Assembly (NCBI GenBank): GCA_023145185.1
Contig: JAGLEG010000100.1
Location: 1 to 25,530, forward strand
Length of the DNA stretch: 25,530 nucleotides
From: Thermoplasmata archaeon
Lineage (GTDB): Archaea; Thermoplasmatota; Penumbrarchaeia; Penumbrarchaeales; Penumbrarchaeaceae
Direction: 5' to 3'
Positions 9,752 through 15,172 of the stretch are shown here, piece after piece. The notes under the pieces are model-generated. The model did not search any database. It worked only from the letters and a program-made list of their open reading frames with translations, and had not been told where the DNA came from. A program made the position numbers and the translations under genes. Position 1 is the stretch's first letter. Every line of letters starts with the position of its first letter.

Positions 9752-10768
9752 ATGCAACCTGGAGTTGAGGCTGAATATCAATTTCCCCACGAGGGGGTAT
9801 CCGTTCGATGTGAGCTGTGCCCCAATTCGTGCATTATCCCGGACGGAGGCAGGGGGATATGCTCCGTGAGGGTGAACCGTGGGGGGGCCCTCTTCGCTGA
9901 TGGGTACGGGATATACCCCGCCGTGCACATGGACCCGATAGAGAAGAAACCTCTCAACCATTTCCTGCCAGGCAGCTCCATATTGTCGGTAGGGTCCGTG
10001 GGGTGCAACCTGCGATGTCTGCACTGCCAGAACCACAGCCTCGCAAGGGGATCACCATTGGGATTGGAGGATAGCAGGATCCCTCCCGGGGAGATGGTGG
10101 GGATCTCCATGAAAAGGGGATCTGTCGGGATCGCGTTCACCTACAACGAGCCCACCATAAACTTCGAGTACCTCATGGACGTGCTTCCCGACCTGAGGGG
10201 ATCGGGAGCACGCGTGGTGATGGTTACTAACGGACACCTCTCCCCGGAGCCCTGGAAGAGGGTAATGTCCATGACCGATGGTGCCAACATAGATGTCAAG
10301 GGGTTCACCGAGGAGTTCTACAGGGATGTGACAGGAGGCAGCCTTCGGTCGGTCCTCGAGAACGTCAGGGCGGCCTTTGATATGGGCGTTCACGTGGAGC
10401 TGACGTACCTCGTGATACCCGGAAGGAACGATGACGGCGATCAGGTGGCCGGTTTTCTGCAGTGGGTCAGGGATCACCTCTCGACCTCCGTACCTCTCCA
10501 TTTTACAAGGTTCCATCCCGACCACAGGATGACCGATGTACCTCCCACCCCGGTAAAGACCCTGGAGAGGATCCGTGGGGAGGCGGTGGATTCGGGGCAC
10601 GAACACGTGTATATTGGAAACGCATGGGGCGACGGTTTCAACGATACCAACTGTCCCGGATGCGGGAAGGTCCTGATCAACAGGGATGGATACTCCACCC
10701 GGGTAAAAGGGTTCAAGAATGGTATTTGCAGTAGCTGTAAAAGGGAGATATATGGGGTGTGGAAATAG
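9752..10768 (+). CDS. amrS: AmmeMemoRadiSam-system radical SAM enzyme (PFL-activating-enzyme-like)
   Basis: N-terminal CELCPNSC...GICSVR, DPIEKKPLNHFLPG, GCNLRCLHCQN, IAFTYNEP, NIDVKGF, HVELTYLVIPG, PLHFTRFHP, and a C-terminal Zn ribbon CPGC...CSSC. GGTGA RBS at 9741-9745. Confidence 0.9.
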   Translation: MQPGVEAEYQFPHEGVSVRCELCPNSCIIPDGGRGICSVRVNRGGALFADGYGIYPAVHMDPIEKKPLNHFLPGSSILSVGSVGCNLRCLHCQNHSLARGSPLGLEDSRIPPGEMVGISMKRGSVGIAFTYNEPTINFEYLMDVLPDLRGSGARVVMVTNGHLSPEPWKRVMSMTDGANIDVKGFTEEFYRDVTGGSLRSVLENVRAAFDMGVHVELTYLVIPGRNDDGDQVAGFLQWVRDHLSTSVPLHFTRFHPDHRMTDVPPTPVKTLERIRGEAVDSGHEHVYIGNAWGDGFNDTNCPGCGKVLINRDGYSTRVKGFKNGICSSCKREIYGVWK

Positions 10769-11691
10769 TGTCATTGTTCCTGATCAGATATGCGGAGATA
10801 GGCCTCAAGAGCGACCGGGTGAGACGGCGGTTCATAAACAGGCTGAAGGAGGACATAGAGAACAACCTCATGGAAAACAACGTCGACCACATAGTGGAGG
10901 AGGAGAGGGGGAGGGTGTTCGTCGAGACCTCTGACCCCGATGCCACCGCGGCGGTCCTGAGGACTATCAACGGCATACACTCCTTCAGCCTGGTGGAACC
11001 CTGCTCATCCTCATGGGATGGGATCATGGAATGTTTGAAAAAGGTGGGAGAGGAGAACATCTCGGAGAACATGACCTTCGGCCTCAAGGTGAAGAGGGTG
11101 GGCAAACACCCCTATTCCAGTCAGGATATCGCCATCAACGGCGGGTCGGCGGTCCTTTCGCACCTTCCAGAAGGCGTCAATTCCGTTGATCTCAGGGATC
11201 CAGATGTCTGGTTCGAGGTGGAGATAAGGTCTAAAATGGCCTATATTTTCACGGCCCGTATACGGGGTAAGGGGGGAATGCCATCCTCCACCCAGGGCCG
11301 GTCCATCCTCTACCTTCCCGGGATCGGAGATATGGATGAGATGGAAAGGGAGAGGATCAACCTGAGGGTCCGCATCTCAAGGCTTCTGATGGAGCGGAGG
11401 GGGGTCAAGGTCATACCCTGCTGCTGGAAGGTGGACCTCGATCCCTGGATCGACCTGATGGCCGACACCCACGGGGAGAGGCCGTTCTATATCGAGGGAG
11501 AGGACCTGGAGGGCGCCTTGATGGCGACCCTGATCAAGCTGGATGCCCGGGCGGTGATATATCCAGTCCCTCTCGATGGGATCTCCTCGTATCCTCTCCT
11601 TCACGACAAGGGGGGATCGGTCGCCTCCTTCTTTCCCACCGCCGTCATGGATGATGATGAGCTGGAGACCTGGGCCGTTTTCTTCGGGTGA
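10768..11691 (+). CDS. THUMP-domain protein derived from ThiI, with degenerate PP-loop catalytic domain
   Basis: ThiI N-terminus (LIRYAEIGLKS..RRRF), THUMP core (TFGLKVKRVGKH, VDLRDPD, VEIR) and linker GKGGMPSSTQGR. The SGGIDS PP-loop is replaced by LPGIGDMD. GTG 10768 overlaps the amrS TAG (alternative start GTG 10759). Confidence 0.8.
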   Translation: MSLFLIRYAEIGLKSDRVRRRFINRLKEDIENNLMENNVDHIVEEERGRVFVETSDPDATAAVLRTINGIHSFSLVEPCSSSWDGIMECLKKVGEENISENMTFGLKVKRVGKHPYSSQDIAINGGSAVLSHLPEGVNSVDLRDPDVWFEVEIRSKMAYIFTARIRGKGGMPSSTQGRSILYLPGIGDMDEMERERINLRVRISRLLMERRGVKVIPCCWKVDLDPWIDLMADTHGERPFYIEGEDLEGALMATLIKLDARAVIYPVPLDGISSYPLLHDKGGSVASFFPTAVMDDDELETWAVFFG

Positions 11692-11717
11692 GGTCTAACG
11701 GCGTTTAAATAAAATAC

Positions 11718-11724
11718 TTATATA
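11718..11724 (+). promoter_or_regulatory. TATA box (TTATATA) with A-rich BRE-like upstream sequence
   Basis: AAAATACTTATATAG in an AT-rich gap; predicts a transcription start near 11745-11750. Confidence 0.55.
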
Positions 11725-11745
11725 GTAAAAGCTTACAATGACATT

Positions 11746-11831
11746 GGTAGGTGTGTGGCATCACCGAGACCTTCTACCTCGGGATGCGGAGATAAGGCCG
11801 CTGCCTCTTAGATGTGATCCACACGGGGTGA
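11746..11831 (+). promoter_or_regulatory. Putative structured 5' leader RNA (three-way junction abutting the RBS)
   Basis: P1 GTGTG(G) 11753-11758 / (C)CACAC 11819-11824; P2 GCATC-a-CCGAG 11758-11768 / CTCGG-GATGC 11778-11787; weak P3 AGA-taa-GGC / GCC-TCT. GGGGTGA RBS follows at 11825-11831. Confidence 0.4.
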
Positions 11832-11836
11832 TTTGG

Positions 11837-12700
11837 ATGGTAAGAGCTCTATTTGATAGATTGTTCGGAAGGAAAAAGGCCCGGAGAAGGGAGTATCAGG
11901 ACTACCTCCAGGAGGATCATTCTCCTGTGGACGAAGGGGGATACGACGATGAGAACCTCCTGATAGATCACAGGTTCCATTTCATGTCAACAGGTGACTA
12001 CGAGAGGAACATGGACAGGATGGCGTACAGGGTCACCCTGGAGAACACCACGGAATATCCGCTTGGAAACCTGAGGGCCGAGTTCCATGAGGGCAGTAAA
12101 CTTGGAAGTTTCGGCAAGGTAAATGTATCACAGGCAATGGTGGACCCGGGTGACAAGGCGGAGATAGAGGTCCAATTCGAGCCACGGTATGTCGGGGGGA
12201 AGGAGTCCTTTCATTTCGACCTGCTGTTCTTTGACTTCAAGTACAGGGTGGAGGAGCGGATCTCACTGGATACCGAACCGATAAAGGTGACCGTCCCGAA
12301 ATTCACCCCTCTGGATCTGGACGAGGACGGCTACAGGATCCTCACGTCAAACCTGTATCGATGGGCTTTCGAGACCGATATCATGAAGATACCTCCAAAA
12401 ACGCTGTTCGGCTCATTGGATGCCAGATTGGGGAAGATCGGCTTCGAGGTTGCCGACGAGATCGTCAACGATGCCATCTTCCGCGGGATCAAGAGATTTG
12501 TGGCGACGGACAAGAAAGGTAGAAAGTGGGCGGTTCAGGTCCAGGTGATCGGCGAAGGGAAGAACTCCAAGCTTCTCATGTACACCTTTGGGGAGAGGCC
12601 CCAGTTCGCCTACAACCTGACAACCAAGGTCCTGCTCAAGCTCCCCGAGAGGGAGATACTGCTCGGGTCCATGTTCTCGGGGGAGATGGAAAAGGATTGA
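11837..12700 (+). CDS. Hypothetical protein resembling an adaptin/coatomer appendage (Ig-like sandwich + platform) domain, about 287 aa
   Basis: The ORF is well supported (GGGGTGA RBS 5 nt before ATG 11837; track start 11738 is probably overextended). The fold call is a by-eye similarity to AP-2 alpha and beta-COP appendages (see findings). Confidence 0.55.
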   Translation: [287 protein letters not shown]

Positions 12701-12797: not shown

Positions 12798-13745
12798 ATG
12801 TCACCATCTTTGTTCAAGAAATCCGGTGCGGCGGCCATCAAGTTCATGGAGGCCAACAAGCAGGAGATCAACAACTACTCGCAGATGCTTGCGGGTATTG
12901 GATATGCCCTCGTGGGCACCCCCATTGAGTTCAGGGCGGCTATGAGTATCTCCGGCCTCAGGGACAGCGCAAAGAAATACGCCCACGAGAACGGGTGTTC
13001 TCTTGTCGTCGAGGTGAAGGACCCAAATCCGATGGCCAATCCCTTCAACCCCTACAAGTATTACCTCTATCAGTACCAGGGGTCACCGCCTCTGCCCGAT
13101 CCCATGGAACCCCCATCCAAGGGGGGCGGTGGGGTTGCAGCCGCCGGGCAGGCTCAACAGGTGGCCGCTTTCATATGCCCTTACTGCCAGAAACAGTTCA
13201 ACGCCTACGTCCAACCAGGTCCGAACACCATCACCTGCACGGGGTGCCGTGGACAGAGTATGGTGGAGATGCCTGCTGCAGGTGCGGCAGTGGGTGCTGC
13301 GAACCAATCCTCCGATCAACTGGCCCAGATCAAATTAAGTGGGGGGTACACGACCGTTGAGGAGATGGTCGTGGATTGCTGTGAGGCGCTGGGGAAGATA
13401 ATGATGGTCGAGGGCAACCCCATCGAGTTCGAGGACACAGGTGAGTTCCTGTATCCATTTATCCTCATGAAACAACATGGCTATCAGCATATCGGCTTCC
13501 GCAAAATGGACCTGTATCTGGTCAGGGAGGCAACCCACGATTACAAGGTCTTCGGGAGCGAGGTACACACGCAGTCCCAGGCGTCCATCAATCCACTCAG
13601 GGACGATCTCTTCGCGATAAAGGTGCTGGGAGGCCTTCATTACATGGTCCTGGAGGAGTTCAAGAAACTGGAGGACGATCAGAAACGTGACATCTCCACC
13701 GCCTTCTACGAGTTCCTGACCCGGTATATCTCCGTATCCTCATGA
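12798..13745 (+). CDS. Multidomain hypothetical protein: small N-terminal domain, Pro/Gly/Ala/Gln linkers, central Zn ribbon, C-terminal globular domain
   Basis: CPYC-x16-CTGC flanked by low-complexity linkers (PPLPDPMEPPSKGGGGVAAAGQAQQ; PAAGAAVGAANQSS); GGAGGT RBS at 12786-12791. Confidence 0.8.
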   Translation: MSPSLFKKSGAAAIKFMEANKQEINNYSQMLAGIGYALVGTPIEFRAAMSISGLRDSAKKYAHENGCSLVVEVKDPNPMANPFNPYKYYLYQYQGSPPLPDPMEPPSKGGGGVAAAGQAQQVAAFICPYCQKQFNAYVQPGPNTITCTGCRGQSMVEMPAAGAAVGAANQSSDQLAQIKLSGGYTTVEEMVVDCCEALGKIMMVEGNPIEFEDTGEFLYPFILMKQHGYQHIGFRKMDLYLVREATHDYKVFGSEVHTQSQASINPLRDDLFAIKVLGGLHYMVLEEFKKLEDDQKRDISTAFYEFLTRYISVSS

Positions 13746-13799: not shown

Positions 13800-14702
13800 A
13801 TGGAGAGGCTGTTGGGGAAGCCCGTTGCAGAAAGGGTTCTTAATGAGATAGCAGGGCTGTTGGACCCATCGGACCCGCCAAAGCTCGTAATATATTTGAT
13901 AGGGTCCCACCCCTCATCGGAGATCTATGCCAGGTCCAAGGTAAGAAAAGGAGAGGGCATAGGCATCAGGACAGAGGTCCGGAAGCTCTCGCCCGATATA
14001 TCTCCCGAGGAGGTCAGGGCACTTATCCTTGTGGATGGCGGGTCCGACGGGGTGGACGGCATAATGATCGAGAGCCCGCTGCCGGGGGGACTGGACATGT
14101 CCGACCTGGTCGGTGCGATCCCCCCCGAAAAAGATGTGGAGGGGGTGACGTGCGAGAACTACGGCCTGATGTCCCTTGGCCAGCCTCGTTTCATCCCACC
14201 CACGCCGCTAGGCGCCCTACTTGTAATGCTCCACTACGGTATAGATGTGAATGGAAAGGATGTTGTGGTGGTGGGGAGGGGAAGGAATGTGGGCAGGCCA
14301 CTTTCCACCCTGCTTTCGATGAAAACGGAATGGGGAAACGGCACGGTCACCCTGGCGCACTCGGGAACGGCGGACCTCGGGTCAGTGACCCGCCGCGCGG
14401 ACGTCATCTTCACGGGTGTGGGCAGGGAGGGGTTGATAGGCAGAAATATGGTCAAGAAGGGGGCGGTGGTGATCGACATGGGGATAAATGCTGTTGATTC
14501 GGGTATCGTTGGGGACGTCGACGTGGACTCCCTGGATGGGTGGGCTTCCATGGTAACCCCGACACCCGGTGGAACAGGCCCCGTCACGGTCTCCGCAATA
14601 TTCCTGAACCTCATGATGGCCAGCATGATGCGGAGGTCCCTGGACCTCTCGTTCAACGATAAGATCATCCAGGCCCTTTACGGGCAGAGGAGGTCACCAT
14701 GA
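13800..14702 (+). CDS. folD: Bifunctional methylene-THF dehydrogenase / methenyl-THF cyclohydrolase
   Basis: LLGKPVA, SEIYARSK (YxxxK), VDGIMIESPLP, IPPEKDVEG, FIPPTPLG, VVVVGRGRNVGRPL, VIDMGIN, VGDVD and TPTPGGTGPVTV. ATG 13800 preferred over the track's 13776. Confidence 0.95.
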   Translation: MERLLGKPVAERVLNEIAGLLDPSDPPKLVIYLIGSHPSSEIYARSKVRKGEGIGIRTEVRKLSPDISPEEVRALILVDGGSDGVDGIMIESPLPGGLDMSDLVGAIPPEKDVEGVTCENYGLMSLGQPRFIPPTPLGALLVMLHYGIDVNGKDVVVVGRGRNVGRPLSTLLSMKTEWGNGTVTLAHSGTADLGSVTRRADVIFTGVGREGLIGRNMVKKGAVVIDMGINAVDSGIVGDVDVDSLDGWASMVTPTPGGTGPVTVSAIFLNLMMASMMRRSLDLSFNDKIIQALYGQRRSP

Positions 14703-15172
14703 TGAAGGTCGTAAGATGTATTGAATGTGGCCACGTTACCTTCGAGCTGTGGAAGGGGCTGGACCGCTGTCCCGAATGCTCCGGTGATATCGAACAAATT
14801 GAGGAGGATATGGGCCCGAGGGAGAGGATCCCAAGGGTCCTCAAGATGGGTGGGATACTGCTCGTAATGGTGGCTCTGGTGCTCATAGTGTTCAACAGTT
14901 TCAACGGATCGGTTCCGGAATCCCTTCTCCGCACTGCTTTTGTTATCCTCCTGGTCGCCATACTATTTCTGGGCATCTCCCTTGCATATGTGTACGTCCT
15001 GTCCAGGGAGGCCTGTGTCAAGGTACAGGGGGAGGCCCCGCCTCCAAAAAGAAGGAGAGGGAGTGCGCTCAACCGGGGTACAGGGCCCAGGCGAGGGGGT
15101 CAAAGGGATGAGGTCGTTACGGGCGGAATGCCCAGGTCCAGGGGGACCAAGATACTGCCCGAGAGGAAATAA
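14699..15172 (+). CDS. Small membrane protein: N-terminal Zn ribbon, two TM helices, basic disordered tail
   Basis: CIEC-x13-CPEC, two hydrophobic segments (GGILLVMVALVLIVF; AFVILLVAILFLGISLAYVYVL) and an Arg/Gly/Pro-rich C-terminus; ATGA overlap with folD. Confidence 0.8.
   Translation: MMKVVRCIECGHVTFELWKGLDRCPECSGDIEQIEEDMGPRERIPRVLKMGGILLVMVALVLIVFNSFNGSVPESLLRTAFVILLVAILFLGISLAYVYVLSREACVKVQGEAPPPKRRRGSALNRGTGPRRGGQRDEVVTGGMPRSRGTKILPERK

Follow-up and report, generated by a model that had tools for sequence, protein, structure and literature searches.

In the vesicle coats of eukaryotes, ear (appendage) domains serve as hubs of interaction. Proteins with unfused alpha-adaptin C-terminal and beta2-appendage domains are encoded by Asgard archaea (Eme et al., 2023, PMC10307638), and adaptin-appendage proteins made of an immunoglobulin-like (Ig-like) and a TBP-like domain (IG + TBP) have also been reported in non-Asgard archaea, the appendage domains being placed in the last archaeal common ancestor (Makarova et al., 2024, bioRxiv 10.1101/2024.02.06.579148). 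The same study linked archaeal appendage domains to the endosomal sorting complexes that are required for transport (ESCRT), proposed an ESCRT-0-like cargo-adaptor role for the Meth_adaptin proteins and described Thermoplasmata as retaining no more than the core ESCRT components, with every putative ESCRT-0 analogue lost. Here we describe a free-standing ear gene, with product P0001, on contig JAGLEG010000100.1 of a Thermoplasmata archaeon (assembly GCA_023145185.1), the source of the DNA being a cold-seep metagenome. The whole stretch analysed, 25,530 nucleotides, is called the window below. The predicted fold of P0001 resembles the ear of vesicle-coat adaptors in eukaryotes, an assignment supported by several structural searches. 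An ear gene is present in every sampled genome of one Thermoplasmatota class, and no ESCRT genes are detectable in the genome or the family that carries the window. The gene and the parts of its product are as follows.

11837..12700, + strand: ear gene (P0001), coding for a 287-aa stand-alone adaptin-appendage-like protein, stop codon included
11837..11950, + strand: residues 1-38, disordered arm with pLDDT <50; a hydrophobic-basic motif, then an acidic linker
11951..12292, + strand: residues 39-152, Ig-like beta-sandwich of the GAE / adaptin-C2 type
12296..12685, + strand: residues 154-283, TBP-like platform, alpha-beta-alpha-beta4-alpha

The AlphaFold2 (AF2) model of P0001 was built from a 24-sequence alignment and has a mean predicted local distance difference test score (pLDDT) of 82.9 and a predicted template-modelling score (pTM) of 0.76. 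Its core lies above a pLDDT of 90, 188 residues reach at least 90, and values below 50 are restricted to residues 1-38 and 282-287. Nine strands across residues 41-151 make up the sandwich half, and the platform half contains helices at 163-170, 187-200, 255-266 and 272-283, a strand at 174-179 and four strands between 204 and 252. The chain therefore has the two parts of an appendage, namely an Ig sandwich of the adaptin-C2/GAE type with a TBP-like platform directly after it. It has no HEAT-repeat trunk, since its 287 residues leave only the 38-residue disordered arm ahead of the fold, and no Adaptin_N gene was found in the window. The arm has a net charge of +6 over residues 1-20 and then of -9 over residues 21-55. 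No transmembrane (TM) segment was detected in P0001, the highest 19-residue Kyte-Doolittle mean being 0.52, and neither P0001 nor the other stand-alone relatives have a CxxC pair or a TM helix; a zinc ribbon is found only in the product of the separate gene next to the ear gene.

Appendages lead the comparisons of this model with three structure libraries. In the Foldseek search of the PDB, ranks 1-16 are solely AP-2 alpha, AP-2 beta2, gamma-COP and beta-COP appendages (E 3e-9 to 3e-5 over about 240 columns). A second search, independent of Foldseek, compared the model with 48,161 representative chains and gave the following best scores.

Rank 1: AP-2 beta2 appendage, score 12.1, 203 residues aligned
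Rank 2: gamma-COP appendage, score 12.0, 208 residues aligned
Rank 3: AP-2 alpha appendage, score 12.0, 199 residues aligned
Rank 4: AP-4 beta4 appendage (platform only), score 11.0, root-mean-square deviation (rmsd) 3.0 A, model 154-274
Rank 5: gamma2-adaptin ear (sandwich only), score 10.2, rmsd 2.6 A, model 38-152

Similarly, the best 30 matches among Swiss-Prot models are without exception adaptin or COPI large subunits (30/30), and a protein-language-model feature search independently returned the same adaptin/COPI families (0.83-0.87). In structure-based alignment, model residues 38-269 correspond to alpha-adaptin 719-938 and residues 36-271 to beta2 718-937. A first-pass annotation, made from the letters of the DNA, had drawn P0001 as a 287-aa protein of 11837-12700 lacking a TM segment, with a basic-then-acidic N-terminal arm, a beta-rich half and an alpha/beta half, collinear by eye with the AP-2 alpha appendage. 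The charges and the low pLDDT of the arm, the order of strands and helices and the aligned ranges agree with that drawing throughout, and the structural check that it proposed places appendages on top in three structure libraries (PDB, the 48,161 chains and Swiss-Prot). The fold claim stands because the model is not a generic Ig domain joined to an unrelated alpha/beta fold; both subdomains match ears, and in order.

Two surface-candidate motifs are the most conserved of the ear family, for which the mean column identity is 56%. The best-conserved one, DEDGYRxLTxxLYRWxxET (residues 162-180), opens the platform and includes the conserved Y166-R167 and W176, with a wider family consensus of W-R in place of Y166-R167. 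The other, DKKGRKW, is a near-invariant basic hairpin turn at residues 225-231 of the platform.

A word-indexed search found 25 relatives of P0001 at 49-94% identity, all of them unnamed or 'hypothetical' proteins of Thermoplasmatota metagenome-assembled genomes. When 1.84 billion cluster representatives were searched exhaustively with phmmer, 79 matched. Most of these 79 are proteins of 400-850 aa that align near their C-terminus with both subdomains of P0001 (residues 62-257). They share a plan in which a signal peptide is followed by extracellular domains that vary (PEGA, S-layer, CARDB, PPC), then by a single TM helix, ~60-90 linker residues, the two-subdomain module and, at the C-terminus, a CxxC...CxxC zinc ribbon. 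The phmmer E-values between P0001 and these membrane-anchored, zinc-ribbon-tailed proteins are 1e-8 to 1e-11, a protein of locus L016 is matched by tblastn at E 3e-13, and a search with a module profile brings up proteins whose names assign them to Methanosarcinales, Methanoperedens and Methanococcoides. The locus of one relative contains an AAA ATPase gene (Pfam AAA + AAA_lid_3), a second module-bearing paralogue and a gene for an SPFH protein with a zinc ribbon at its end. It also encodes a Snf7-like protein of 186 aa, aligned with positions 3-157 of the 171 in the profile at E 2.6e-4; this locus matches the Meth_adaptin ESCRT system (Makarova et al., 2024). Among 78 aligned modules, sub-threshold Pfam matches fall collinearly, with GAE/adaptinC2 on the sandwich (PTHB1_GAE in 18, best E 6e-4; Alpha_adaptinC2 in 6, 0.0012) and, further along, the coatomer platform on the other half (5 modules with Coatomer_g_Cpla, at best E 0.028).

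The Meth_adaptin proteins of Methanosarcinales thus share the IG + TBP-like module with P0001, by homology detectable in sequence. However, their chains also comprise extracellular domains, a TM helix and, at the C-terminus, a zinc ribbon, whereas P0001 is stand-alone and lacks all three, and their genes adjoin Vps4, ESCRT-III and SPFH genes, whereas those around P0001 encode THUMP, radical SAM, FolD and H+-PPase proteins. The ears of AP-2 alpha and beta2, AP-4 beta4 and gamma- and beta-COP (1b9k, 1w80, 1e42, 3h1z, 2mj7, 1r4x, 1pzd) have the same sandwich-then-platform order and a similar size; P0001 differs from them in the missing HEAT/alpha-solenoid trunk and clathrin-binding hinge, and sequence identity is 6-13%. 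The GAE domains of gamma-adaptin ear, GGA and the BBSome (BBS1/2/7/9) have no platform subdomain, unlike P0001. Asgard stand-alone appendage proteins are likewise encoded apart from an adaptin trunk, but they are recognised by Pfam domains which P0001 does not reach, and the host of P0001 belongs to the Thermoplasmatota. In shape, the nearest whole module is an archaeal 243-aa stand-alone cluster (TM-score 0.67/0.77, rmsd 3.5 A over 233 residues, between predicted models), and an Asgard (Promethearchaeota) 329-aa cluster gives a TM-score of 0.63/0.56 with the whole P0001 model. The predicted subdomain geometry of P0001 is common to archaeal models at an rmsd of 3.5 A, all of these being predictions.

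The first-pass annotation had proposed a eukaryote-like trafficking fold, encoded as a free-standing ear, in a non-Asgard host. The fold, the 287-aa stand-alone form without a trunk and the Thermoplasmatota host are borne out; the novelty of such a fold outside Asgard archaea is not, as it is already in Makarova et al. (2024). What does look new is a stand-alone ear subfamily without TM anchor or zinc ribbon, with a paired gene, in a family without detectable Vps4/ESCRT-III. Also new, as far as can be judged, are its occurrence in all sampled genomes of one class and a conserved hydrophobic-basic motif at the N-terminus where relatives have the TM anchor.

The ear family was detected in 39 of 301 genomes sampled across the phylum. 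It occurs in all genomes (23/23) of the GTDB family to which the window's own genome belongs, 2/2 of the order and 11/11 others of the class; elsewhere in the phylum, ~264 further genomes gave 2 weak, partial matches. Within one class of the phylum, the present family shows the opposite of the pattern reported for Thermoplasmata, in which core ESCRT components are kept and ESCRT-0 analogues lost. The genome of the window has a single copy of the ear gene.

A separate arrangement of ear modules was seen in another genome of the class, in a 16-kb cluster (L047, G186:C168:1-16000). The cluster encodes a TM-anchored ear protein of 397 aa and two fusion proteins (839 and 664 aa) with an ear module at the N-terminus and an FGE-sulfatase domain at the C-terminus. 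Also encoded there are an SPFH+zinc-ribbon protein, two P-loop proteins of Double-GTPase-like type and a HEAT-repeat protein of 584 aa that weakly matches Adaptin_N. Ear, HEAT-trunk-like and SPFH genes occur together here outside Asgard archaea.

The gene directly 3' of the ear gene is conserved along with it.

12798..13745, + strand: neighbour gene (P0114, 315 aa), directly 3' of the ear gene; putative ear partner

P0114 consists of a small alpha/beta N-domain, a CxxC...CxxC four-strand zinc ribbon and an alpha+beta C-domain; the ribbon is inserted between the two domains and is missing from shorter versions of the family. The C-domain has invariant DTGExLYPF, H231, R235, H247-D248 and E255-x-H257. 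No Pfam family was found for P0114, comparison with structures of the PDB, the AFDB clusters and the ESM Atlas turned up nothing convincing, and a language-model feature search gave no usable match. The neighbour family is present in 23/23 genomes of the same GTDB family, 2/2 of the order and 9/11 others of the class, in the same genomes as the ear, and its mean column identity is 69%. A survey of the surroundings of homologues, as had been proposed from the first reading, revealed this conserved putative partner directly 3' of the ear gene in five GTDB families (f1, f2, f5, f6 and f7). The other flanks of the pair are unrelated among families, and include ribosomal protein genes with an enoyl-CoA hydratase gene, CTP synthase and others. 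Between the pair in the window and that of locus L018, the ears are 27% identical and the neighbour C-domains 50% (E 2e-37). Kinship of the ear module with the neighbour family was considered and rejected (hhalign probability 0.2%, unrelated).

The ESCRT context was assessed in the window's own genome, which is 91% complete. Neither the Snf7 nor the Vps4_C Pfam model gave a match above cut-offs in it, and no match was obtained with either of two ESCRT-III queries from archaea, of which one belongs to the same class. A Vps4 query from the same class matched only the ATPase core of open reading frames (ORFs) of Cdc48/PAN size, without the MIT region. FtsZ genes are present. Across 23 other genomes of the family, the sole MIT match (1/23) is a false positive in an FrhB-like protein, and no ESCRT gene occurs in the conserved neighbourhoods of the ear gene. 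Elsewhere in the class, a 5.5-Mb genome of another family (G158) encodes five ear paralogues and, at locus L049 (G158:C175:5762-8394), a 192-aa Snf7-like gene followed by a Vps4-like gene with MIT+AAA+lid domains. An ESCRT-like module therefore exists in part of the class.

Within the first 20 residues, in the disordered arm, the family has a hydrophobic-basic pattern, G-[LI]-F-[DS]-R-[LF]-F-[KR]-[KR], and the motif with its charged linker is kept in stand-alone relatives at 25-35% identity. Examples in these distant relatives are GGLFSRLFKKE, AGVFDRLFKKK, GLLDFFRRKKK, MGLFDIFRRKKK, MIAGIFDRIFKRK and MIFGIFDRFKKK. In P0001 the motif takes the position that the TM helix and linker have in the membrane-anchored relatives. 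Short amphipathic-plus-basic N-termini are typical of membrane targeting, as in MinE and ESCRT-III subunits. Because the motif resembles such N-termini and the relatives have their TM helix at the same position, we infer that a flexible arm tethers the ear peripherally to the membrane, with residues 1-38 as the predicted targeting region at the inner membrane face. LFDRLFGRK was also considered as an MIT-interacting motif (MIM); this was judged unlikely, no MIT protein being detectable in the family.

Taken together, these observations suggest a free-standing archaeal appendage-region module, made up of an Ig-like sandwich and then a TBP-like platform, whose hydrophobic-basic N-terminal motif would tether it to the inner face of the membrane, with the acidic flexible linker between motif and fold. 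The tethered ear would, like the ears of eukaryotes, be a hub for protein docking, its likeliest client or co-worker would be the product of the adjoining gene at 12798-13745, and the two would act independently of ESCRT. The docking-platform reading is based on the fold of a known interaction hub, the linker-borne cytoplasmic-face module of the relatives, the conserved tether motif and the conserved pairing. On balance we lean towards a membrane-tethered docking hub with the neighbour's product as its likeliest client. That ear and neighbour form an unrecognised, ESCRT-independent, membrane-associated two-protein system, universal in one Thermoplasmatota class, is put forward tentatively and should be regarded as doubtful.

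Several results weigh against the docking hub. Superpositions of both subdomains on eukaryotic ears have an rmsd of 13-14 A and a TM-score of ~0.3, so that the predicted inter-subdomain geometry differs from that of eukaryotic ears. P0001 has no match up to E 10 to the adaptin/COPI Pfam models, and homology to eukaryotic ears therefore draws on the fold and on the sub-threshold matches of relatives. Other sequence comparisons are in line with this: PF02883, PF02296 and PF16381 have no match up to E 10 in the whole genome, Pfam at large returns only Ig-like noise for P0001 (E 0.1-0.3), NCBIfam gives no match, and among PDB sequences nothing meaningful was found by phmmer and nothing with the family profile. 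A wider module profile retrieved from the PDB only the Ig domain of a GH20 enzyme (E 1.7e-6) and arrestin noise, which were set aside. Further, the N-terminal motif is short and modelled at low confidence, and its putative membrane role is drawn from resemblance to known membrane-targeting sequences. The ear and neighbour genes are non-adjacent in family f3, and much of the synteny inside the close family may merely mirror overall genome collinearity. A complex prediction for ear and neighbour gave no verdict on an interaction (score 0.00); the chains were folded without alignments, and the result speaks neither for nor against binding.

The missing Pfam matches would also be expected if the likeness to ears were convergent or generic, P0001 being an Ig-like domain next to a TBP/KA1-like domain that binds phospholipid or nucleic acid and does not dock peptides. 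The near-invariant basic turn DKKGRKW would suit such a role, and in several relatives a TBP gene lies directly 5' of the ear gene. We consider this quite unlikely, given that a single chain contains the two subdomains in the same order, that the first three places among 48,161 chains go to two-subdomain ears, that the sub-threshold matches of relatives run collinearly from GAE/adaptinC2 to the coatomer platform and that the language-model search independently yields the same families. The pairing across five families can also be read as that of a two-subunit enzyme, in which the neighbour gene encodes the enzyme, the ear is a subunit that regulates or targets it, and no trafficking device is involved. 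In keeping with this, the neighbour is more conserved than the ear (69% vs 56% mean column identity; for the window against L018, 50% in the C-domain where the ear has 27%), and its invariant D213, E216, H231, R235, H247, D248, E255 and H257 are putatively catalytic or metal-binding. We rate the enzyme pair as unlikely.

The literature points in another direction, as appendage domains have been tied to archaeal ESCRT (Makarova et al., 2024), and P0001 could be an ESCRT accessory, an ESCRT-0-like cargo adaptor of a Vps4/ESCRT-III system that is encoded elsewhere or has diverged beyond detection. The AAA ATPase, Snf7-like and SPFH genes at the loci of distant sequence relatives fit this, as does G158 of the same class, with its MIT+AAA Vps4-like gene after a Snf7-like gene and its five ear paralogues. 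In the window's own genome, however, Snf7 and Vps4_C stay below cut-offs, the ESCRT-III queries are null and the AAA matches come without MIT. The ear is found in 23/23 genomes of the family vs 1/23 for MIT (the false positive), and the conserved neighbourhoods are free of ESCRT genes. An accessory role in ESCRT is thus improbable for this family, and the membrane-tethered docking hub is the reading that we retain.

The limits of the ear gene are set by its homologues. Mechanical calling gives an ORF of 11738-12700 (320 aa, ATG at 11738, stop at 12698-12700), but the common start in 24/24 aligned homologues is the Met encoded by the ATG at 11837, and the gene is therefore taken as 11837-12700. 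This start, together with a hexamer shortly ahead of it, agrees with the coordinates and length of the first reading. Two upstream elements were read from the sequence.

11827..11832, + strand: Shine-Dalgarno-like hexamer GGTGAT, 4 nt 5' of ATG 11837
11704..11724, + strand: A/T-rich TATA-box-like element TTTAAATAAAATACTTATATA, within the 145-bp spacer 3' of the THUMP gene

The TATA-like element is a candidate archaeal promoter of the ear gene; a sigma-70 promoter scan is inapplicable to archaea. The strand opposite the ear gene has only a 60-aa ORF, and no Rfam family was matched in the window. Two metatranscriptome-labelled marine-sediment libraries have contigs of close relatives, 90-99% alike, over parts of the neighbour gene (12935-13720) and 11600-11685 (3' end of the THUMP gene). 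The ear gene has no contig cover in these two libraries, which may contain DNA and so are not proof of transcription.

Upstream, radical-SAM (AmmeMemoRadiSam-like) and ThiI-ferredoxin/THUMP genes (9752-11691) form an adjacent pair 5' of the ear gene in all close relatives. In several relatives a TBP gene is located between THUMP and ear, 17-28 nt 5' of the ear gene (L013/L014, 5431-5973; L015, 5437-5973; L020, 4442-4984); in the window the corresponding interval, 11692-11836, has no TBP gene, and no TBP remnant was detected there. There is no evidence that this adjacency and the TBP-like platform of the ear are linked by more than coincidence. Downstream, the product of 14699-15172 has 157 aa and combines a CxxC...CxxC zinc ribbon at its N-terminus with hydrophobic segments. 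No Pfam family was found for it; a gene for 151-169 aa holds the same slot after FolD in all syntenic relatives.

Archaeal relatives of ears have so far been discussed as ESCRT accessories, and Thermoplasmata have been described as having lost them. What remains of interest here is a minimal, class-wide ear variant with a conserved putative partner of its own and without a detectable ESCRT context. The neighbour family, with no recognisable fold and with invariant polar residues, is an uncharacterised target worth its own study, and the pair offers a small two-gene system for testing ancestral ear function. As the ear is kept across the class, including genomes without detectable ESCRT, the module would have an ESCRT-independent job in archaea. 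If ear and neighbour do form an ESCRT-independent two-protein system, the ear would have worked as a membrane-tethered docking hub in archaea that have no coat, trunk or ESCRT, which would have a bearing on how the adaptors of eukaryotes were put together from parts already in existence.

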